From a virus (Duplodnaviria; Heunggongvirae; Uroviricota; Caudoviricetes): a stretch of DNA of 41,610 bases. Shown in pieces: positions 3,506 to 27,034 of this stretch (positions are counted from its first letter, which is position 1; each line of letters opens with the position of its first letter). Made by a program: the position numbers and the translations under genes. The notes beneath the pieces were generated by a model. That model did not search any database, had not been told where the DNA came from, and saw only the letters and a program-made list of their open reading frames with translations. The stretch is taken from IMG/VR virus record IMGVR_UViG_2537561977_000020; one strand, written 5' to 3'.

Positions 3506-4255
3506 TCAGATCAGATCGGTGTAGTAGGTGAAGTTGCCAAACTGCGGATGTGTCCAGCGCTTGCGGTTACCTTTCGGCGGTGTCGATTCGTTTAACAGCT
3601 TTTGAGCTGCTTGTTCGATCGCTGGGAGGTTAACGAGCAATCCCCGAACACCGGTGTCTGAACGTACCGGTATACTGGCGAAGCCGATCAATTTCCGGCA
3701 TGTTGAATCAGATAAACCTGTTTTCCATGCTGCTTTGCTGACGGGGACATATTCACCTTCAACATGAGGTAAATTCGCTGGTGCTGCGGGTTGAGAATAG
3801 CCGGTTGCGTCCAGACAAGCTTTCATCGTTGCTTCTGCAACGACTCGAGCAAGTTGGACGATGCCGTCGTTGATCTGAATTTTGGGTGTGGAAGGATGGG
3901 TAACAAGCGGTTGTACTTTACCTGTTTCCAGCTCACGCCAGCGCTTAACTACTTTATACCGGTCGTGGGCGCTATAACCAGTTACAAGCGTTGTGGAAAG
4001 GTCCTGATCGAGTAGTATTTCATCAATGACTTCGCGACCATTATAGATCTTCCTTTTGACTAAAAAGTCTTTATTTTCATGATGGTACATTTCTGTACTA
4101 TGAAAACCCAACTGCTCAAGAAGTGCTTTAATATCGCGCACGACTATTTTATGTTCTTTGCTGGTAAGTTCTGCAATCTCGCGACTGCTCATCATCGGTT
4201 GCTTACCAGTGCCTGCTAGTGTTAAAGTTCTTTCGGACATTGAAGTGTTCTCCAT
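3506..4255 (-). CDS. Rha-family phage regulatory protein (antirepressor-like)
   Basis: N-terminal MMSSREIAELTSKEHKIVVRDIK resembles Phage_pRha domain. Confidence 0.6.
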   Translation of the reverse strand: MENTSMSERTLTLAGTGKQPMMSSREIAELTSKEHKIVVRDIKALLEQLGFHSTEMYHHENKDFLVKRKIYNGREVIDEILLDQDLSTTLVTGYSAHDRYKVVKRWRELETGKVQPLVTHPSTPKIQINDGIVQLARVVAEATMKACLDATGYSQPAAPANLPHVEGEYVPVSKAAWKTGLSDSTCRKLIGFASIPVRSDTGVRGLLVNLPAIEQAAQKLLNESTPPKGNRKRWTHPQFGNFTYYTDLI

Positions 4256-4300
4256 TCAGTAAAAGATGCGCTGGTAGCTGCAACTATCAGCGCGTTTTGT

Positions 4301-4477
4301 TTATTCATCCCACGGCTTGTTTGCAGCTTCCCTTGCGGCCTGCTGCGCAAAATAAATCAATTCAAAAGCTAACTGCTCTCCTTTTTCCAGCGAACTGAGA
4401 AGTCTTGCTGTTTCCAGCATGTCCGCGATATACCCGAAAATATCTGCCTGATGTAACTGCGTGATCTGAATAGCCAT
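4301..4477 (-). CDS. small hypothetical protein (58 aa from internal ATG)
   Basis: Track ORF 4301..4549 starts inside the operator array; internal start MAIQITQLHQ at 4477 is more plausible; no recognised family. Confidence 0.3.
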   Translation of the reverse strand: MAIQITQLHQADIFGYIADMLETARLLSSLEKGEQLAFELIYFAQQAAREAANKPWDE

Positions 4478-4493
4478 AGCGTTAACCTCGATA

Positions 4494-4557
4494 GAACCAC
4501 GGTGGTTCATTTTTAGTAAACCACCGTGGTTCATTGATGTCAACACCACCGTGGTGC
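4494..4557. promoter_or_regulatory. three near-palindromic operator sites between divergent genes
   Basis: GAACCACgGTGGTTC (4494-4508), AAACCACcGTGGTTC (4518-4532), ACACCACcGTGGTGC (4543-4557); centres 24-25 bp apart. Confidence 0.65.
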
Positions 4558-4591
4558 ATAATTTGGTGATTGAGTTTATGAGGTGTTTGCT

Positions 4592-4936
4592 ATGAGTCGT
4601 GAAGATGCACAGATGAAGATCCGTTTACCTGCGGAGCTGAAAGCGCAGTTAGAAAAAGCAGCTCTGGAAAATAAGCGGTCTATGAATGCGGAAGTACTCC
4701 ATCGTCTCAAAGAAAGCTTTAATGTTTTAGTTCACATAACATATAAAGATTCCGAGGGGGAGTTATCAGATAGTAATACCTGGAAGCGTTTTTTGGAATC
4801 ATCTGAACATGGTGATGAATATAAAAAAGGCTTTGTTAAGCTTGTCAAAGAAAAATATAAACTTGATAAGGAAAATGAGAGGTTATATAGCTTAATTATA
4901 AGCTATTTGAACCCCACAAAGAGTGAAGATGATTAG
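4592..4936 (+). CDS. Arc/Mnt-type ribbon-helix-helix repressor
   Basis: N-terminus KIRLPAELKAQLEKAALENKRSMNAEVLHRLKESF resembles Arc/Mnt RHH fold; ATG 4592 with GAGGTG upstream (track lists GTG 4583). Confidence 0.6.
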   Translation: MSREDAQMKIRLPAELKAQLEKAALENKRSMNAEVLHRLKESFNVLVHITYKDSEGELSDSNTWKRFLESSEHGDEYKKGFVKLVKEKYKLDKENERLYSLIISYLNPTKSEDD

Positions 4937-5853: not shown

Positions 5854-5878
5854 AAAAAGCCCCTGACTGAGCAGGGGC
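5854..5878 (-). terminator. intrinsic terminator after antirepressor cassette 1
   Basis: Minus-strand hairpin GCCCCUG-CUCAGU-CAGGGGC then U5; near-identical copy at 10090..10114. Confidence 0.6.
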
Positions 5879-5889
5879 GAATTGAAGGA

Positions 5890-6654
5890 TTAACGGGGTA
5901 ACTCTGGTGGAATATATCTGCCGATGCGGTCTTCTATGGTCGGCAGAATGCACATGCTGTCGTTAAAGCGGTCATGCAGTTTGTAGACCAGTTTCGAATC
6001 CATTTTTTCGAGAGCAGGCATTAACTGCGCTCGCCAGATTTCATTAATACGTCGGAAGTTATGACAGACGGCGCGGAGATTGTTGATGAACATTTCCTTT
6101 TCTGCGTCACTGATTCCGGTCTGTGCTTTCTGAATGCATTTCGTGCTGCCATTCCGGTAGAAGCGTTCCTGGGCAGCGACAGCCTCATCCACGGATGGAT
6201 AACACCCTACGTAAACGCTTTTCTCTCCGTTCCATGCGTAGGCTCTGTACGGGTTGTATTTGCTCTGGTGATGGTAAACCATCTTCGGCAGGCACTCCCT
6301 GTGCGGCGCCAGTATCGTGGAGGACTGCTGGTGCAGTTTGCGTTCGCATTCGATGAAGTATCGGCGTATCTGGCGACCTTTTTCGTTACGCTCGACCATC
6401 GCCAGTTCTTTGGCTGTATCGAGGGTGAGGTGGTAGTCCTTACAAAGAACATTTTTACGCTTTCCAGTTTTGGAAAGCGTTACGATATAATCCTGATTTT
6501 CAACGAATTTATAGTCTGCAATTCGTGATGTAATCCATGCTGCAAACACTTTCCCTACCCCAAGGAATGCGTGCAGATCGCGAGCATTGCAGAGCAGGGT
6601 GATTTCGTTGGCGATAGCGCCGTTGAAAACGGGGATGAGTTGAGCTGCCATCAC
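5890..6654 (-). CDS. antirepressor (AntA-like N-domain + KilA-C-like C-domain)
   Basis: N-terminal IPVFNGAIANEITLLCNARDLHAFLGVGKVFAAWITSRI; C-terminal ~145 aa nearly identical to ORF 10126..10899. Confidence 0.6.
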   Translation of the reverse strand: MMAAQLIPVFNGAIANEITLLCNARDLHAFLGVGKVFAAWITSRIADYKFVENQDYIVTLSKTGKRKNVLCKDYHLTLDTAKELAMVERNEKGRQIRRYFIECERKLHQQSSTILAPHRECLPKMVYHHQSKYNPYRAYAWNGEKSVYVGCYPSVDEAVAAQERFYRNGSTKCIQKAQTGISDAEKEMFINNLRAVCHNFRRINEIWRAQLMPALEKMDSKLVYKLHDRFNDSMCILPTIEDRIGRYIPPELPR

Positions 6655-6941
6655 AGTTACCTCTAACGGTGAAATTCACCGCCACCACTGAGTTGCAAAT
6701 CTCATATGGGTGGCGAACTGACGAGGTTTGCAATACCGGCGTTAGAGGAAACCGGCGCGCCGAAGCGCCCCCGCCAGCCCGCCATAATGCGAACGTGGCA
6801 AAGCTTGCGACAATAAAAAAGACGCTGGCGCGTCTGGTGTCGCCCCTAACAATTCCGGGTTGCAAATCCCGATCTCCATTTGGGAGATTCGGTGAGCATA
6901 AACCGGAAGGGGGTGATGAGTCAATATCGGGGTAGCAGGGC

Positions 6942-7022
6942 GGTCGGGTACTTGAACACCGCAGCAAGTCGGCCCGTATCCTTAGCCTTTCGGCTGTTTT
7001 TCGGTATACGCGCTACCCGACC
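6942..7022 (-). promoter_or_regulatory. structured leader element (long-range stem enclosing GNRA-type hairpin)
   Basis: Inverted repeat GGTCGGGTA (6942-6950) / TACCCGACC (7014-7022) enclosing 63 nt with AGCC-GAAA-GGCU hairpin; homologous element with compensatory changes at 10938..11016. Confidence 0.45.
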
Positions 7023-7106
7023 ATATCTGAAAATGGACATAAAAAATCCGCATGACTGACGGGCGCGGTTTCCGCTTGCTGTGGTGTGTTCAGCACCATG
7101 AAGCGG

Positions 7107-7136
7107 AATATACCTATTGGTCATCGCGGATGTCAA
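7107..7136 (-). promoter_or_regulatory. sigma70-like promoter of antirepressor cassette 1
   Basis: Minus strand TTGACA (7136-7131), 18-bp spacer, TATATT (7112-7107); conserved copy at 11121..11150. Confidence 0.55.
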
Positions 7137-10059
7137 TCTTTCCGGTATCTGTAAGATTCGAATCCTCCGGCGTTTAGTGGAATGCTCGTGGCCCAGTCAG
7201 GAACGGTTGCCAGTAACTGGCTGACATGTTCTGCTGAGTAATCGGGTGAGTCAGGGGCCTCACTTATAATTTCATCGTGTACCGTCAGCACAATGCTGTA
7301 ACCGGCATCTTCGATAAGCGGCATGTTTCCGGCCAGAACGTCGCGGGCGGCCGCCTGGGTGACGTTCTCCACCAGCTTTCCGCCGTAGGTTTTGAGTCGT
7401 TGCCATTTACGCGAATAAGAGTTAACACCCATATAGGTGATATTCCCTTTTTCGATAACCGGAGACGGGTAGCATACAGCGCGTCCGGATGGTAGCTGTA
7501 TGCGCAGCCACGCGCCATCGCGGCGGATTTTAAGATAACCGCAATACAATGTTTTTTGCGGTGTGGCGATTGCAGTGCGGACGGTGCGCTCCAGTTCGTA
7601 CCAGAAATCGCAGGTCGCCGGGTGCGCCCTGCGCCAGAGACGTTTAAGTGAGTCGCAGGCGATAAATACCCGTTCAGAAAGGCCGTAGGTTGACTTACGT
7701 TTAACCGATTCGTAGTACCAGCTTTTCGCCTCGCGGATAACATCGCGGGGAATGTTTGGCAGTGCGGCGTTCGCCAGCTCGTCGAGATCGAGACTGTAAA
7801 CCAGTGCAAAAGTGATGAAGGCCGACACACCACCACCGTACCCGCAGTTGTGAACGATTAAATGTCCTGAGTCGGTTTTAATCGTGAATCTGTTTCGAGG
7901 CCCCGCATGTGCAATGTCGTAAACATCGCTCCAGCTCGTCGATACGTTTTTGCAGGTCTGCGATTTTTCTTCTGTTGCGGTTATTGTCTGCTTTGGAGAC
8001 GAACTGGATATTACCCGGTTCGTAGCCTTTGTTATTGTCGATGCGATCCATTTCCAACTTTGGGTCATTAAACCCTTTGATTTCCCTGACGTGTAGCAAA
8101 AAAGCTCTTTTATCTTCCTGCCATAGCTGACAAACGTAGATCCCCCGACCGCCGTAGTTGTGAAACAACCTGTTGGTGGGTTTATGGCAACGGCTGATTG
8201 CGGCAGACAATCGGTTAAGTAGCCTGCGACGGGTTTCGTCATCTGCAATAGCATCCGCATAGCATAAGAATTTTTTACGATACTCGTTATGCTTTTTCTT
8301 TGCGCAAATGTTACATCGGGTACTTTTTCCTTTAAGGAGATTGCTGATTGTTGCGGTGTGAGGCATTGCACCACATTTGCATTTGACAAGTATCCTTCGG
8401 TCTTTTCCGGGTACTTTTTCCAGTTCTTTGATAACGGTAAGTTCTCCGAAGCAAGTTCCAGGCTTTGGTGAAGCGTATTTTTGTTTAAAGCGATAAGGTT
8501 TGCCAGCTTCCATCCAGTAGGGGTTAGCACCTGGTGATCCGGGGTCATTTTTGCTCCGTCCAGTGATATTAAGGCTTTGTACCCCCTGTAAATCAGTCCT
8601 TCGTGTTTTACCCATTCTTCTCCGTCCCATAACAAATCCGCGCCCGAAATACTAACAAGCGGCTTATAGCCTTTATCGGTGAGCACTAAAGTATCCGGAG
8701 CTATGCAAGCCAATTCCAGCACTTTACCTATCTGGCGCTGGTCTTTGGTGACGCGCTCAACTTCAATTCCGTAAGCTTTTGCATACGCCAGTTTATATAA
8801 GTCCGGACCCGCTCCGGCGTCGTACTCTCTGAATGCATTCAGTTTCCATTCTTCTCCCGCCAGCCATGCCAGCATACGGCCTTCAATGTTCGACAAGTCA
8901 CTTACCACCAGTTTTTACCTGTTGGCGCGATAATGCAGCCACGTAACGCTGAACTGGTTAGTTCCATGATATTGTCAAACAGCAGGTCTGCACATCCGGC
9001 TTTCAGTGCTTCGATGCCTTCGTCTATTTGTTCCTGTTTTAGTGAAGGGCGGGGAAGATTCTGGGGCTGGAATAGCCGTCCGGCCCAGCGCCCGGTACGT
9101 GACGCCCCGCAGAACTGTAGCGTACCGCGTAAGCGCCCGTCGTGGCTTACGCCTTTCATCAGTGCCTTGTATTTACTGGTGCTGGTAGTACTGGCTTGCT
9201 GGCGGATAGCCAGCAGTTCTTTCACGGCAGATGGTAAATCGGGGTCGGCTATACGACGTTCCAGGGTACTGCGTTGCATGTCTGGTAGCTCCACACCGTA
9301 GGATTCAACGATGTGCTTAATCAACGCGTCCCGTTGTGTGGCTGCCTGCACTTCGCCATCAGTCATTTCCTGTGTACGCTTTGCCAGGCGCTTTTGCTCC
9401 TGGTCTACCGCTTCGATCGCAGCGCGCGCGAGTTGAATGTCCATGCAGACGCCCCGGTCGTTGATCTGCTGATCACGATGCCAGAGCGCCAGTTCTGTCC
9501 CCTGATAATTCCACTTCGGCAGACGTTTATAGACTTCGCGCATTGCCTCGATATCCAGCCCGGCGTAAGCAACAAAGCGCCGCCATTCTTCCGGGTGGGT
9601 TTTACTGGTGGCCCGACGCAGTTTGCTGTTTTTCGGGCGTGGCTTACAGAACAGCTGGATCAGCGCTTTACCTTCTTTGTCCTTCGCTTTGTCTTGCGGG
9701 ACGCCGAGTATTTCGCAGAGTTCCCCCAGAGACCCCGGGAGGCCGTGCGCCAGCGCCTGCACCATTGTGTCGCGCCAACGTTCGACTGGCGGTGCCAGTC
9801 GCGGCATTGCATAACGCAGGACGGTGCGGTCGAAGTGAGAGTTATGAAAATAAAGCAGGGTCTCAGGGGCTGCGATTGCTTCGTATAAGCCGTGTGGAAT
9901 ACCACCACCGGCAGTGATATCCCACACGTTTACGGGCCCGTCGTTGATAGCCCATGCGAACAGCATCACTTCAACGCCTTCGGCATACGCATGGGTACCG
10001 TTCGTAATAGGGATTTCGCAATAGGTTTCCAGGTCGCCCCATAGAATGTTTTCAGACAA
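7133..10059 (-). CDS. family A DNA polymerase (3'-5' exo + pol), frame-broken and intein-containing
   Basis: Exo motifs [33 protein letters not shown]; pol motifs [26 protein letters not shown] (motif A), [10 protein letters not shown]|CGYGGG (motif B split), LTVHDEI (motif C). Two track ORFs (8902..10059, 7133..8908) joined by -1 shift at T5 run 8912-8916. TTG start 10059 with GGAGGA upstream. Confidence 0.7.
7847..8707 (-). mobile_element. intein inserted in DNA polymerase motif B
   Basis: Begins Cys after KVLELA (CIAPDTLVL...), block B TPDHQVLT, ends ...HLIVHN followed by +1 Cys (CGYGGG); 287 codons. Confidence 0.6.
7878..8630 (-). CDS. HNH homing endonuclease ORF nested in the intein, different frame from Hint blocks
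   Basis: [12 protein letters not shown]...[28 protein letters not shown] plus Cys-rich N-region (CKCG...RCNIC); recognisable domain from about 8513 (MEAGKPYRF); frame is -1 relative to intein splicing blocks. Confidence 0.55.
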   Translation of the reverse strand: MGRRRMGKTRRTDLQGVQSLNITGRSKNDPGSPGANPYWMEAGKPYRFKQKYASPKPGTCFGELTVIKELEKVPGKDRRILVKCKCGAMPHTATISNLLKGKSTRCNICAKKKHNEYRKKFLCYADAIADDETRRRLLNRLSAAISRCHKPTNRLFHNYGGRGIYVCQLWQEDKRAFLLHVREIKGFNDPKLEMDRIDNNKGYEPGNIQFVSKADNNRNRRKIADLQKRIDELERCLRHCTCGASKQIHD

Positions 10060-10089: not shown

Positions 10090-10114
10090 AAAAAGCCCCT
10101 GGCTGAGCAGGGGC
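10090..10114 (-). terminator. intrinsic terminator after antirepressor cassette 2
   Basis: Minus-strand hairpin GCCCCUG-CUCAGCC-AGGGGC then U5; paralogous to 5854..5878. Confidence 0.6.
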
Positions 10115-10125
10115 GGATTGAATGA

Positions 10126-10899
10126 TTAACGAGGTAAAGTGGGTGGAATATATCTGCCGATGCGGTCTTCTATGGTCGGCAGAGCACACATGCTGTCGCT
10201 GAAGCGATCATGCAACTGGTAAACCAGTTTCGAATCCATTTTTTCGAGGGCAGGCATTAACTGCGAGCGCCAGATTTCATTGATGCGCCGGAAGTTATGA
10301 CAGATGGCGCGGAGATTGTTGATGAACATTTCCTTCTCTGCGTCATTGATTGCTGTCTGCACTTTCTGAATACGCTTTGTGCTGCCGTTCCGGTAAAAGT
10401 CCTTCTGCGCAGCGACAGCCTCATCCACGGTTGGATAGCACCCGACGTAAACGTTCTTCTCTCCGTTCCATGCGTAGGCTCTGTACGGGTTGTATTTGCT
10501 ACTGTGGTGGTAAACCATTTTCGGCAGACACTCCCTGTGCGGCGCCAGTACCGTGGAGGACTGCGGAATAGCGGTTTCTTTCTCTATAAGATCAAGCACC
10601 CAACGGCGAAATTCTTTTGCTACTGGCGTTGTTGCGAACATCGCTACCAGGTGAGCACCGCGTAGAGAGAAAATGCGGTTATTCATTTGGACGGAGCCGG
10701 TTTTCCTAACGACCGTCAATTTGACGGTCGTTGTCATTTCAACTGAAAACTCATCCCGATTACGGTCATAAATACGAGCGACTGAGTCCGTTCGTGAGTA
10801 TTCCAGCGCGGTCGCCAGAGTGGCAGCGGTGAACCAAGATTTGCCGTTATGTTCGATCGTTTCGAGAATGTGGGATTTGAATACGAGTTGGGTACTCAT
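10126..10899 (-). CDS. Bro-N/KilA-C type antirepressor-like protein
   Basis: Probable start MSTQLVFKSH at 10899 (track ORF extends to 11064 through the leader); Bro-N-like N-domain; C-terminal domain paralogous to 5890..6654. Confidence 0.55.
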   Translation of the reverse strand: MSTQLVFKSHILETIEHNGKSWFTAATLATALEYSRTDSVARIYDRNRDEFSVEMTTTVKLTVVRKTGSVQMNNRIFSLRGAHLVAMFATTPVAKEFRRWVLDLIEKETAIPQSSTVLAPHRECLPKMVYHHSSKYNPYRAYAWNGEKNVYVGCYPTVDEAVAAQKDFYRNGSTKRIQKVQTAINDAEKEMFINNLRAICHNFRRINEIWRSQLMPALEKMDSKLVYQLHDRFSDSMCALPTIEDRIGRYIPPTLPR

Positions 10900-10937
10900 G
10901 GTTTTATGCCCTAGTAGATATTTTGAATTTACCCTTT

Positions 10938-11016
10938 TTGAGAGGGTGGTCGGGCGCTCAAAACCGCTACTAGTCGGCGGGCGTATTTCCCTTCGGAAGG
11001 GTGTTGTATTAGCCGC
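10938..11016 (-). promoter_or_regulatory. structured leader element, cassette 2
   Basis: GGTCGGGCG (10938-10946) / CGCCCGACC (11008-11016) enclosing 61 nt with CCCUUCGGAAGGG hairpin; arms covary with cassette 1. Confidence 0.45.
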
Positions 11017-11120
11017 ACGCCCGACCATTGAATTCTCAATATCATGGACATAAAAAATCCGCATGACTGACGGGCGCGGTTTCCGCTAGTAGAAAAGGTG
11101 TTTTGAGCACCATGAAGCGG

Positions 11121-11150
11121 AATATACCCATTGGTTATCGCGGATGTCAA
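11121..11150 (-). promoter_or_regulatory. sigma70-like promoter of antirepressor cassette 2
   Basis: Minus strand TTGACA (11150-11145), 18-bp spacer, TATATT (11126-11121). Confidence 0.55.
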
Positions 11151-11184
11151 TGTATGCTTTTGCAAAAGGTTGTCATCCCCTTTG

Positions 11185-11210
11185 CAAAAACACCCGGCGT
11201 GTAACCGGGC
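11185..11210 (-). terminator. intrinsic terminator after SSB gene
   Basis: Minus-strand hairpin CCCGG-UUACACG-CCGGG then UGUUUUUG. Confidence 0.5.
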
Positions 11211-11225
11211 GTCTATGAAGAAGGG

Positions 11226-11773
11226 TTAAATTAGTGCTTCAGCATCAGCACTTTCGCTGATATCGTCGAAATCGTCAGCGCTTGCCACTCCGCCGCCAGC
11301 GAATGCATCGCCGTCTCGCAGGAACTGGACTCCGCCGAGTGAGGCATTAATGCGTTTACCGAAATTATTGTCCTGTGCCCAGATATCGATAACGGCGTTT
11401 ACATAGCACCCTGCATAGGGACGTCCATCAGCCTGAATTAGTGGCGAACGATCGCGATCAAGAACAGCTGGGCGCGCTTTGTTAGCAGCGTTCAGGAAGA
11501 AATTGCCGGGAAAGCCTTCATACTCTGCTTTTTCATCACCATCATGCAGGCACAGATTGAGTTTTTCTCCAGCTGGTTATAAATGGACTCCAACTTCTCC
11601 CCCCATTTTTCCTTCGCTACCTGCTTCATAGCTTTACGGATTTCTTCCAGTTGTGGGTGTTTGGGAGACATTAAAAATACTGCGGAGAAACGCGGATCGC
11701 CTTCGCCGTTTACAGTTTTAGCTTCAAACAGAGCAGGAAAAGCTAATCTCACGTTATTTAATTTAATCTTCAT
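11226..11773 (-). CDS. DUF2815-type phage single-strand DNA-binding protein, frame-broken
   Basis: N-terminus MKIKLNNVRLAFPALFEAK; continues in -1 frame after T5 run 11562-11566 as LCLHDGDEKAEYEGFPGNFF...ending 11226; track shows only 11492..11773. Confidence 0.6.
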
Positions 11774-12285
11774 TTCAAAACTCCTATAAATTCTATGGAT
11801 TCTTTTTCCGCTGCTTTACGCGCAATTACAGCTTCCGCTACGGAATTAAATAGACCTAAATGTTTTTCTTTGCCGTGCAGCTTTATATAAGCTCTCCACT
11901 TATTACGGTGACGGCAAACCCCAACGGCACCGCTTTTATTATCAGAGCGTAAGGATTGGTTAATGTTATTTTCGGTAGAGGTTACAAGTCGTAGATTAGA
12001 AAGGGTGTAATTGCTCCGATTTTTGTCTATGTGATCTACCTCTAATCCCGAGGGGATACTACCGTTATGCATAACCCAGACGATGCGATGTAACAACATT
12101 TTCCGACCGTTTACACTTACGTGATAATACCCGTCCGGCCTTATATGTCCCGCTTGCTTATCTGCATATTTAGCATTCCAGGACAAATAGTCTCGCCGGG
12201 TTTTAAAATGGGTGAGCGGACGATATTTCCATATTAAAACGCCATTGTGATACCGGAAGCATTCATTTAAATATTCTTGATCCAA
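11770..12285 (-). CDS. HNH homing endonuclease (HNH + AP2-like DNA-binding domain)
   Basis: EVDHIDKNRSNYTLSNLRLVTSTEN and SGAVGVCRHRNKWRAYIKLHGKEKHLGLF. Confidence 0.65.
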   Translation of the reverse strand: MDQEYLNECFRYHNGVLIWKYRPLTHFKTRRDYLSWNAKYADKQAGHIRPDGYYHVSVNGRKMLLHRIVWVMHNGSIPSGLEVDHIDKNRSNYTLSNLRLVTSTENNINQSLRSDNKSGAVGVCRHRNKWRAYIKLHGKEKHLGLFNSVAEAVIARKAAEKESIEFIGVLK

Positions 12286-22568: not shown

Positions 22569-23141
22569 ATGACTAAGAAGCTGAAAGCAAAACACGAGGT
22601 GTTTTGTCGCGAGTTTCTTGTCGATCTGAATGCTACACAAGCAGCTATTCGCGCAGGCTACGCCTCCAGGCGAGCACATGTTACGGGGGCTGAACTATAC
22701 GGTAAACCTGAGATACGCGCCCGTATTAACGAGCTAAAGCAGGAGCGTATTGATCAACTGGGCATTGATGCGAATTATGTGCTGATGCGACTGGTTGAGA
22801 TCGACAGGCTCGATGTGGCTGACATCCTGGAGGACGATTTAAGTATTAAGCCTCTGTCTGCGTGGCCGGAATCGTGGCGTCGGTACCTGAGTGGATTTAA
22901 CCTCGCTGAAATGTTTGAGGGGCGAGGAGATGACAGAGAAATGGTCGGGATCCTTAAAAAGATTAAGTGGCCTGATAAGGTTAAAAACCTTGAGTTGCTT
23001 GGGCGTCATGTTTCTGTTCAGGCGTTTAAAGACAACGTCAAAAATGAAGTGACTGGCGCTGACGGAGGACCAGTCAGAACAGAAATTACCAAATTAACGC
23101 CTGAGCAGGCCGCAGAGGTGTATAGAAAAATGATGGGCTAA
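22569..23141 (+). CDS. terminase small subunit
   Basis: N-terminal [24 protein letters not shown] typical of Terminase_2-type small subunits; precedes large subunit. Confidence 0.6.
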
Positions 23142-26304: not shown

Positions 26305-27034
26305 GGCCTGGTACCGCAGACAACTGGATAATGCCGTCAGTGGGATGCACAACAGTGTACTTTACTGGCTGCGGGCTGAGTACCGTAAAACAGACCTCGC
26401 GCAGGATGCGTCCCCCGTTAACCTGATGCGTGGTGCCATGCAGCAACTTGCCAGGCGCTGGCAGAAAAATTTTGACGAAATGGCCCTGCGGCTGGCGAGG
26501 CGGTTTGCCGGTGATGTCCTGAAAAACAGCGATGCGTCACTGTACACTGCGCTCCGTGATGCCGGGTTTACGGTTCCTTTCCGTATGACAACGGAGATGA
26601 ATACCGCACTTCAGGCCAGCATCACGGAGAATGTGAACCTCATTCGCTCCATCCCGCAGCAACATCTCACCCAGGTGGAAACACTGGTCATGCAGTCTGT
26701 TGGCCGGGGACGTGACCTGAAAACGCTGACCGATGAACTGGAAAAACGTTACGGCATCACACGACGGCGCGCGGCGCTGATTGCCCGCGACCAGAACAAT
26801 AAGACAACGTCGGTAATGCAGGCCGCCAGACAGCGTTCGGTGGGTATCACTGAAGGTGTCTGGCGGCATTCCCGCGCGGGTAAAACATGGCGTCCGTCGC
26901 ATGTGAAGGCGAACGGTAAACGGTTTGACCTGCGAAAGGGGATGTTTCTGGATGGTAAGTGGGTACTGCCGGGCGAAGAAATCAACTGCCGGTGTGGCTG
27001 GGAGGCCGTTATTCCCGGACTGGAGAAAAAATGA
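26264..27034 (+). CDS. head morphogenesis protein (Mu F / SPP1 gp7-like)
   Basis: C-terminal [24 protein letters not shown]...CRCGW motif; start uncertain (track 26213). Confidence 0.55.

Follow-up and report, generated by a model that had tools for sequence, protein, structure and literature searches.

Small RNAs control antirepressor genes or prophage immunity in several phages. The closest described system to the locus considered here is c4 of phages P1 and P7 (immI; RF01695, with c4-a1b1 as RF03163). The c4 RNA is encoded upstream of the antirepressor gene within the same transcript; its fold combines two internal hairpins with a long closing stem, and its 3′ tail is of the RCC type. Two of its sequences, a′ and b′, are complementary both to upstream sites, a1 and b1, and to downstream sites, a2 and b2, with b2 lying over the ribosome-binding site; sequence variants define heteroimmunity. 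The biology of P1 c4 was reportedly set out by Citron and Schuster in 1990. According to the summary in PMC12197685, this RNA is processed by RNase P. The DNA analyzed here is a 41,610-nucleotide (nt) stretch from a virus (IMG/VR record IMGVR_UViG_2537561977_000020), referred to in its entirety as the window; it is an Escherichia coli prophage adjoining yfhL and is 99.9% identical to one in strain VL40. An earlier note on this DNA had drawn attention to a long-range stem at 6942-7022 and to its counterpart in a second cassette. The two elements, copy 1 (6934..7022) and copy 2 (10940..11026), lie on the minus strand, and comparison with their homologs suggests that each is probably no passive leader structure but a separate antisense RNA, processed from a longer transcript, that pairs with flanking sites through its loop and 3′ junction. 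A true C4 RNA with the exact c4 layout sits 145 nt away in the same window.

The scaffold of these elements differs from that of c4 in its 9-bp closing stem (roughly 17 bp in c4), an additional helix (P2) and the strong conservation of hairpin 1 (AAUACAAnACCCGnAAGGGG); moreover, b2 of copy 2 is found at the ribosome-binding site of the antirepressor gene (ant) without an icd-like upstream open reading frame (ORF). Other described systems share parts of the arrangement. In the Salmonella prophage Gifsy-1 (isrK-orf45/STnc1160-anrP), a terminator-bearing leader RNA precedes a stable RNA that arises by processing and, after it, an antirepressor gene; IsrK, the short form of the leader, switches on antirepressor translation in trans, lifting that of anrP 140-fold, and stable processed STnc1160 occupies the C4 position (PMC4825925). 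The window contains an isrK-C4-antA unit, and the leaders of the two elements (a1, b1, hairpins and a U-run) are laid out analogously to isrK, but neither leader (7030-7101 and 11034-11115) gave a match to RF01394 or RF03163 at E up to 1, such matches being confined to 6815-6901 in the C4 module. The CI RNA of P4 (seqA/seqB/seqC) is likewise an immunity RNA processed from the leader of its own operon with target sites on both sides, according to the summary in PMC4825925, and part of the isrK-C4 region of the window shows weak DNA similarity to P4. P4 immunity operates through premature transcription termination, whereas the position of b2 over the Shine-Dalgarno sequence here points to a translational block, with termination a possible alternative. 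The sar RNA of P22 immI is a small antisense RNA that also represses ant translation; it is, however, a true cis-antisense RNA, its gene running across the ribosome-binding site of ant on the opposite strand, whereas the RNAs described here lie on the same strand as ant and would pair through a short loop and junction.

Scanning the window against Rfam at gathering thresholds gave four matches, all on the minus strand:

7022-6934, minus strand: sRNA-Xcc1 (RF02221), 72.8 bits, gathering score 53, E about 1e-11, model positions 1-87 of 87
11026-10940, minus strand: sRNA-Xcc1 (RF02221), 70.3 bits, gathering score 53, E about 1e-11, model positions 1-87 of 87
6888-6815, minus strand: isrK (RF01394), 50.9 bits, gathering score 50
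6789-6706, minus strand: C4 antisense RNA (RF01695), 70.6 bits, gathering score 45

Other perfect inverted repeats of 9-11 bp with spacers of 56-69 nt, at 183-269, 23011-23104 and 26552-26629, matched no Rfam family at these thresholds. A permissive scan (E up to 1) added only c4-a1b1 (RF03163; 29.8 bits, sub-threshold) at 6852-6901, in the isrK region. Both elements thus belong to a known RNA family, which the earlier note could not assign. The founding member, sRNA-Xcc1 of Xanthomonas campestris, is of the same size (an 88-nt RNA detected by Northern blotting and end-mapping; PMC2996969), but its gene is in an integron cassette, ahead of symE, and it has been presented as trans-acting and controlled by HrpG/HrpX (bioRxiv 10.1101/2025.06.18.660453; PMC2996969). 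A match to RF02221 in E. coli EDL933 is, by RNA-seq, an abundant RNA with low ribosome coverage (PMC5331693); its published coordinate, 1392052, falls in the hok/gef region of NZ_CP008957.1, and a link to the Stx2a-type homolog discussed below can only be presumed. No paper connecting sRNA-Xcc1 with antirepressor control or with a and b target sites was found in the searchable literature: a study of APSE recorded the RNA ahead of an ORF6N gene but offered no mechanism, an integron study placed it upstream of symE and suggested 'a divergent regulatory mechanism', and a 2025 review of phage sRNAs leaves it unmentioned. The small RNA 24B_1 of Phi24B, a proposed repressor of an antirepressor, comes from a different locus, the lom region.

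The stem first noticed in cassette 1 is present as described, with arms GGTCGGGTA (6942-6950) and TACCCGACC (7014-7022) enclosing 63 nt. That of cassette 2 (GGTCGGGCG/CGCCCGACC) does enclose 61 nt, but had been placed 10 nt too low, at 10938..11016, its arms in fact occupying 10948-10956 and 11018-11026. At pairs 8 and 9, copy 1 has U-A/A-U where copy 2 has C-G/G-C, a genuine compensatory difference, and a short internal hairpin occupies the same position in both (GCCGAAAGGC in copy 1 and CCCUUCCGAAGGG in copy 2). A pattern derived from hairpin 1 of the Rfam consensus pulled out 120 more viral loci, and a search for the conserved leader motif 28 viral contigs. A covariance model (R1) built from 24 diverse members recognized 165 copies across the window and 154 loci (numbered with the prefix L below), scoring copy 1 at 58.2 bits and copy 2 at 75.2 bits. 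In an alignment of 71 distinct rows (A3), 96.9% of paired cells could pair, compared with 75.3% in shuffles and at most 54.7% with slid partners; 14 of 16 pairs showed changes on both sides, the covariation score was 0.562 against 0.178 in shuffles, and four nested helices, including the closing stem, covaried. With a further set (A4), the alignment comprised 113 distinct sequences, across which the fold covaried strongly, and in which G.U cells outnumbered A.C cells by 170 to 22 when read on the strand of the ant genes, which fixes the RNA on that strand. The closing stem of phage 2851 (GACCGGGCG/CGCCCGGUC) differs from that of copy 2 (GGUCGGGCG/CGCCCGACC) by two more both-sided changes.

The resulting architecture comprises the 9-bp closing stem, the conserved hairpin 1, a hairpin 2 with a hypervariable loop (b′) and a variable single-stranded 3′ junction (a′). 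In almost every one of the 113 members the closing stem leads straight into an RCC(C/A) tail, similar to that of a tRNA acceptor stem and to the C4 consensus. Hairpin 1 (10985-11008 in the window; L033-L154) carries an almost invariant AAUACAAnACCCGnAAGGGGAAU from phages of Enterobacteriaceae to those of Acinetobacter and Aggregatibacter, against a variable remainder of the RNA; in copy 1 and the Stx2a type, hairpin 1 is of another sequence, ACAGCCGAAAGGCU.

The region 6934-7112 shares 92.9% identity over 179 nt with unannotated DNA between two antirepressor genes of Stx2a-converting phages, and distant-mode BLAST placed further relatives upstream of antirepressor or KilA-N genes in phages 2851, P13374 and POCJ13, Acinetobacter phage 4316 and Aggregatibacter phage Aaphi23. 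When these loci were read side by side, the scaffold was conserved while the loop of hairpin 2, b1 and b2 changed together, as seen by eye in seven triplets:

Window copy 2: loop CUAGUAG, b1 CUACUAG, b2 CUACUAG
Stx2a phages: loop CUUUGCA, b1 UGCAAAG, b2 UGCAAAG
L004: loop CUUUCGA, b1 UCGAAAG, b2 UCGAAAG
L022: loop CUUGCUG, b1 CAGCAAG, b2 CAGCAAG
Phages 2851, P13374 and POCJ13: loop CUACUUG, b1 CAAGUAG, b2 CAAGUAG
Acinetobacter phage 4316: loop CUUCGUA, b1 UACGAAG, b2 ACGAAG
Phage Aaphi23: loop CUGUUUG, b1 CAAACAG, b2 CAAACAG

The a′ junction and its sites change together in the same manner (GUGUUCAAG with CUGAACA, GUUUUGAGC with CUCAAAA and CUUUCGAAC with UCGAAA). For a systematic measure, hairpin 2 and its loop were parsed from the covariance-model alignment in 122 distinct cases of RNA plus flanks. 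A perfect complement to the loop of at least 7 nt was found within 120 nt downstream in 61% of cases (4.0% of non-cognate pairs) and within 150 nt upstream in 68% (4.3% of non-cognate pairs). The sample contains at least 78 specificities; 60 of 78 distinct loops had a match both upstream and downstream, and for every one of these 60 the two words were identical. Where b2 matched over at least 6 nt and a start codon was called, its 3′ end lay 7-11 nt before that codon in 76 of 92 cases. When longest common substrings were sought over the entire 3′ half, a few shared a′ variants dominated the outcome, and the loop and a′ were therefore tested separately; the a′ junction was matched downstream in 48% of cases against 8.4% of non-cognates, and upstream in 32% against 4.5%. 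The 3′ half of the RNA paired with its own translation initiation region at a mean of -17.6 kcal/mol, compared with -11.3 kcal/mol for non-cognates, and 79% of cognates fell in the best decile.

The tie to antirepressor control suggested in the earlier note extends well beyond this prophage: about 87 antirepressor-type N-terminal domain matches were obtained among 108 distinct downstream ORFs (KilA-N 20, Bro-N 19, AntA 18, P22_AR_N 11, ORF6N 10 and Rha 9). That so many domain families follow the RNA indicates that the module is coupled to antirepressor function and not to one protein lineage. Short ORFs of about 75-110 amino acids (aa) after some family members gave no Pfam match. In a GC-rich subgroup (L036, L039, L057, L058, L084, L104, L124, L149 and L152) with loop CAUGCGG and junction AUCGGAAU, the RNA is followed by a promoter-like TTGAC...repeat and by ORFs of ~83-87 aa that match no Pfam family; the distance to the downstream loop complement is ~70 nt instead of ~30 nt, and the controlled gene is no obvious antirepressor. 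Many Stx-type prophages in IMG/VR (L006, L012, L015, L028, L043 and L080) carry two tandem antirepressor cassettes, each with its own Xcc1-type RNA of different specificity, and in P13374 (L032), the phage of the O104:H4 outbreak, an isrK-C4 module is immediately followed by an Xcc1-type module.

Within the window, cassette 2 represents a complete module:

11121..11150, minus strand: sigma-70-type promoter of cassette 2 (TTGACA, 18-nt spacer, TATATT; 11 of 12 consensus positions)
11086..11108, minus strand: a1 GCUCAAAAC (11108-11100) and b1 CUACUAG (11092-11086), complementary to a′ GUUUUGAGC and to loop CUAGUAG
10940..11026, minus strand: sRNA-Xcc1-family RNA copy 2 (stem 11026-11018/10956-10948, b′ CUAGUAG at 10973-10967, a′ at 10964-10956, tail ACCC)
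10909..10946, minus strand: copy 2 target region (5-bp hairpin with a2 CUCAAAA, 10942-10936, in its loop; a2-like UUCAAAA, 10927-10921; b2 CUACUAG, 10917-10911)
10126..10899, minus strand: BRO-N-type antirepressor gene (Pfam Bro-N 2e-11; PHROG 'anti-repressor Ant' 2e-30)
10095..10114, minus strand: predicted intrinsic terminator closing cassette 2

In order of transcription, the promoter, a1 and b1 are followed by a leader segment of the form GCGG-AAA-CCGC-N13-GCGG-AUUUUUU, the RNA, the a2 hairpin, UUCAAAA, b2, AGGG and the ATG. The loop CUAGUAG is complementary to CUACUAG 12 nt before the ATG, and GUUUUGAG to CUCAAAA, so that loop and junction match one pair of sites before the RNA and a second pair over the ribosome-binding site after it. 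Only 41 nt separate the 3′ end of the RNA from the ATG of the BRO-N antirepressor, b2 running directly into the Shine-Dalgarno sequence AGGG, which is followed by 9 nt and the start codon. No ORF intervenes between the RNA and the ant gene, and b2 abuts the ant start itself. From the positions of promoter and terminator, we infer that the RNA and the ant gene are co-transcribed. The longest BRO-N ORFs (10126-11064 in the window; 10829-11731 in L155) and the coding sequence (CDS) in the RefSeq annotation of VL40 start further upstream and cross the RNA; that annotation has no non-coding RNA at the locus and stretches the BRO-N CDS across it. A start at the ATG at 10899 is supported by b2 and the Shine-Dalgarno sequence and by the homologs. 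Just upstream of the cassette 2 -35 sequence, at 11155-11190 on the minus strand, lies a near-perfect inverted repeat (UUUUGCAAAGG N9 CCUUUUGCAAAA) that is absent from cassette 1 and could be an operator through which a protein regulates this promoter.

We consider it likely, with a probability of roughly 0.78 on the sequence evidence, that these features constitute a c4-type immunity circuit built on a different RNA scaffold, in which an Xcc1-type RNA silences the downstream antirepressor by pairing at its ribosome-binding site. Each element would be the gene for an ~80-89-nt RNA of the sRNA-Xcc1 family, transcribed from the minus strand by its own sigma-70 promoter within the antirepressor operon. 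The RNA would then be excised from the transcript, its 5′ end perhaps cut by RNase P as for P1 c4, a role suggested by the acceptor-like stem and tail. Once released, it is predicted to pair through b′ with b2, over the antirepressor Shine-Dalgarno sequence, and through a′ with a2; ribosome binding would thereby be blocked and the antirepressor kept off in the quiescent prophage. By analogy with isrK, the a1 and b1 sites of the leader, together with its alternative hairpins and U-run, may act as a decoy or attenuator that sets how much free antisense RNA there is relative to its target. Immunity specificity would reside in b′ and a′, copy 2 (CUAGUAG) controlling the BRO-N antirepressor and C4 controlling AntA, while copy 1 (CUUGCUG) would be a stand-alone RNA gene without a cis target. 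As variants of c4 define heteroimmunity, so the 60 of 78 loops with co-changing targets may define specificities in the Xcc1 family.

Several observations weigh against this interpretation. Folding of the two elements gave minimum free energy (MFE) z-scores of only -2.7 (copy 1) and -2.0 (copy 2) relative to shuffles, and perfect 9-bp inverted repeats with 55-70-nt spacers are not rare in the window (10 index hits, where shuffles give 2.4 ± 1.7); it is therefore the comparison of homologs, and not the stem as such, that carries the case. The alignments that supply this evidence were fitted to a covariance model and lean towards its structure. The leader hairpins fold no better than shuffles. 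About 20% of loops have no clear b2 match, in part owing to automatic parsing and contig ends. Copy 1 has no a2/b2 pair anywhere in the window, and in L156, where an orphan occupies the same position, b1 no longer matches the loop. Even in the permissive window scan, RF01695 gave nothing over either element, and R1 does not detect the C4 element of the window; since neither model detects the other's RNA, the resemblance to c4 is one of equivalent layout, and homology is not shown.

A competing account, which we regard as improbable, holds that the element is a purely cis-acting leader structure (an attenuator, thermosensor or ligand sensor) within the ant mRNA that never exists as a separate RNA. 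It draws on the position of the element, co-oriented with and immediately upstream of the ant gene, on the prospect that a1/b1 and a2/b2 could be alternative cis partners, and on the predicted fold of the whole copy 2 transcript, in which the sequences on either side of the RNA pair with each other, so that the Shine-Dalgarno region is buried (MFE -73 kcal/mol, z = -4.1). However, this flank pairing is no better in cognate than in non-cognate combinations: UUUUAUGUCC, past the leader U-run, may be an anti-Shine-Dalgarno partner of GGACAUAAAA, in a pairing that is striking in the Stx2a phages (11 bp) and in the full-transcript fold of copy 2, but cognate and non-cognate energies barely differ (-11.2 and -10.4 kcal/mol). 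Nor does a cis-only structure account for stand-alone copies without a downstream gene (copy 1 of the window, and L131, which has its own terminator), for homologs that are discrete 88-89-nt RNAs (PMC2996969, PMC5331693) or for the conserved tRNA-like RCC(C/A) tail. A conserved UUUUUUAUGUCC after the leader hairpins (7035-7047 in the window; L001 and others) is complementary to GGACAUAAAA(A), the Shine-Dalgarno and spacer sequence of the downstream ant gene.

It is highly improbable that the RNA is an Hfq-type trans-acting sRNA directed mainly at host genes, with its linkage to ant incidental. The title of a 2011 study by Chen et al., as cited in later papers, is said to fit a virulence-associated trans-acting RNA. 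The same view, as proposed in Xanthomonas and Xylella, is taken in the literature on sRNA-Xcc1, which reports HrpG/HrpX control and many predicted host targets (PMC2996969, PMC12189769). Yet in 60 of 78 loop classes the variable loop tracks sites only tens of nucleotides away in the same transcript, and a host target could not follow so many different loop sequences; the downstream genes, moreover, are overwhelmingly antirepressors. It can hardly be the case that the element is a DNA-level inverted repeat, such as a protein-binding, recombination or integron attC-like site, and not an RNA, even though the arms form a palindrome-like inverted repeat visible on both strands and the founding member of the family sits in an integron cassette: G.U cells are in excess over A.C cells on the ant strand, four nested helices covary, and the loops match flanking sites in the antisense sense only.

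The pairing circuit proposed for copy 2 does not extend in the same form to cassette 1, which is laid out as follows:

7107..7136, minus strand: putative sigma-70-type promoter of cassette 1 (TTGACA, 18-nt spacer, TATATT; 11 of 12 consensus positions)
7075..7094, minus strand: a1 GCUGAACAC (7094-7086) and b1 CAGCAAG (7081-7075) in the 5′ leader of copy 1
7035..7075, minus strand: leader segment GCGG-AAA-CCGC-N13-GCGG-AUUUUUU-AUGUCC, with alternative short hairpins and then a U-run
6934..7022, minus strand: sRNA-Xcc1-family RNA copy 1, the orphan (closing stem 7022-7014/6950-6942, b′ loop 6969-6962, a′ 6957-6951, tail GCCC)
6895..6924, minus strand: second promoter, predicted to drive isrK-C4-antA (TTGACT, 18-nt spacer, TATGCT; 9 of 12 consensus positions)
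6815..6888, minus strand: isrK element (RF01394), with C4 a1/b1 decoy sites and an intrinsic terminator (6835-6820)
6706..6789, minus strand: C4 antisense RNA (RF01695)
6660..6700, minus strand: C4 targets by complementarity, a2 AUUUGCAAC (6700-6692) and b2/Shine-Dalgarno CGUUAGAGG (6668-6660)
5890..6651, minus strand: antA-type antirepressor gene (Pfam AntA 1e-24; PHROG 'anti-repressor Ant' 2e-51; ATG as called by PGAP in VL40)
5859..5878, minus strand: intrinsic terminator at the end of cassette 1, almost the same as that of cassette 2

The description of the elements as lying in the leaders of both antirepressor genes thus holds for copy 2 but not for copy 1, which is set apart from antA by a promoter, isrK with its terminator, and C4. 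The hairpin-2 loop of C4 (CCUCUAACG) is a perfect 9-nt complement of CGUUAGAGG in the antA Shine-Dalgarno region, and its junction UUGCAAA matches AUUUGCAAC, which occurs identically at the downstream a2 site and in the isrK loop (6867-6859). Predicted duplexes of C4 reach -33.4 kcal/mol with the antA translation initiation region and -36.4 kcal/mol with isrK. Since the C4 loop covers the antA Shine-Dalgarno sequence, C4, and not the stem first reported, is likely to be the direct controller of antA, and this module provides an example of the classical c4 layout inside the window itself.

Copy 1 is nonetheless intact. Its a1 is complementary to a′ GUGUUCAAG and its b1 to the hairpin-2 loop CUUGCUG, and its 3′ half forms a predicted duplex of -34.0 kcal/mol with its own leader, compared with -11.8 to -27.2 kcal/mol for other regions. 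RNAduplex applied to unstructured halves discriminates poorly for GC-rich sequences, and the energies of this duplex and of those formed by C4 are supporting evidence only. The leader segment is conserved in 28 IMG/VR loci, phage 2851, Aaphi23 and L156, its loops being variable, and by analogy with the isrK terminator it might serve as an attenuator. The copy 1 sequence is identical in L017 and in E. coli VL40, and its promoter also precedes a complete homologous module in L022. Either copy 1 is a stand-alone immunity RNA that would work in trans against phage modules sharing its CAGCAAG specificity, for example that of L022, or recombination has left it as a remnant. The latter alternative, in which isrK-C4-antA replaced the original a2/b2-ant part and left a non-functional RNA behind, is a serious possibility although on the whole somewhat doubtful. 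L022 has the complete version, with the promoter and specificity of copy 1, full a2/b2 and a BRO-N antirepressor, and homology of copy 1 to L022 breaks 8 nt past the RNA, inside the a2 hairpin; the loss of b1 complementarity in the L156 orphan would agree with decay. On the other hand, the promoter (11 of 12), a1, b1 and every helix of copy 1 are intact, and its sequence is the same in independent genomes. The order Xcc1, isrK, C4 recurs with a different Xcc1-type RNA in another E. coli prophage (L156), where the same junction follows the RNA as in the window (the second promoter starting 10 nt past copy 1), and Table 4 of PMC12189769 gives it for Xylella fastidiosa De Donno as well. In L131 (with its own terminator), L113 and L099, too, stand-alone RNA genes are stacked before complete modules. 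A candidate trans target of copy 1 in the window, CAGCAAG at 4404-4410 (minus strand) upstream of the Rha-type antirepressor, was rejected as a chance match lying inside an ORF without an a2 partner; the 7-mer occurs 12 times in the window, where ~5 would be expected from length alone.

A wider proposal is that the sRNA-Xcc1 family constitutes a second widespread, reprogrammable class of phage immunity RNA, whose orphan members, such as copy 1, the stacked genes of L131, L113 and L099 and a five-gene array reported in Xylella, would be collected by prophages and silence the antirepressors of other phages in trans as an RNA cross-immunity array. This we consider unlikely. If true, an array of orphan RNAs would prevent induction of the prophage by an incoming or co-resident competitor phage.

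The two cassettes are moron-like inserts in a replication module encoding a DUF2800 exonuclease, a DUF2815/Enc34-type single-stranded DNA-binding protein (SSB), a family A DNA polymerase and a DUF4406 protein. In a related prophage of E. coli JNEC-KY203 (L157), isrK-C4-antA is found between the DUF2815 and DNA polymerase genes, the site occupied by cassette 2 in the window, and the cassettes share terminators and a C-terminal protein domain; it seems that the replication module offers two fixed intergenic sites between which they move. A third antirepressor-like gene, of the Rha family (3506-4255), adjoins two Arc-family repressor genes in the region 3506-4700 (minus and plus strands). Repeated ACCACGGTGG-type inverted repeats surround TTGACA at about 4500-4560, an arrangement that resembles P22 immI (arc/mnt/ant). 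The prophage thus seems to carry three antirepressor modules under three different control systems. The family A DNA polymerase is split over two ORFs (regions 7133-10059 and 11492-12285, both on the minus strand) and is annotated by RefSeq in VL40 as a pseudogene in two pieces. The 591-aa polymerase ORF has an endonuclease-like segment (PHROG 93, residues 87-378) between polymerase segments, and a short piece of the Enc34-type SSB gene lies directly beside a gene for an HNH endonuclease (11770-12285). Both have the look of homing-endonuclease or intein-type insertions in the replication module.

The interpretation offered in the earlier note, a conserved RNA structure controlling antirepressor expression, was largely right; the kind of system is known, and the function of the family can be reinterpreted in a testable way. 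Given that c4-type mechanisms have been known since 1990, the present findings extend and re-annotate known biology and introduce no new principle. An Rfam family treated as a virulence sRNA of plant pathogens can be reread as being, here, mainly a phage regulatory module, associated with at least six unrelated families of antirepressor N-terminal domains. The choice between a silent and an induced prophage is made by antirepressors, and close relatives of copy 1 are located between the antirepressor genes of Stx2a-converting phages. The rule that emerges is that the loop of hairpin 2 is the reverse complement of two words, one at the Shine-Dalgarno sequence and the other in the leader; it yields testable predictions on the gating of antirepressor expression, and possibly of the induction of Shiga-toxin phages, and on which phages cross-react.

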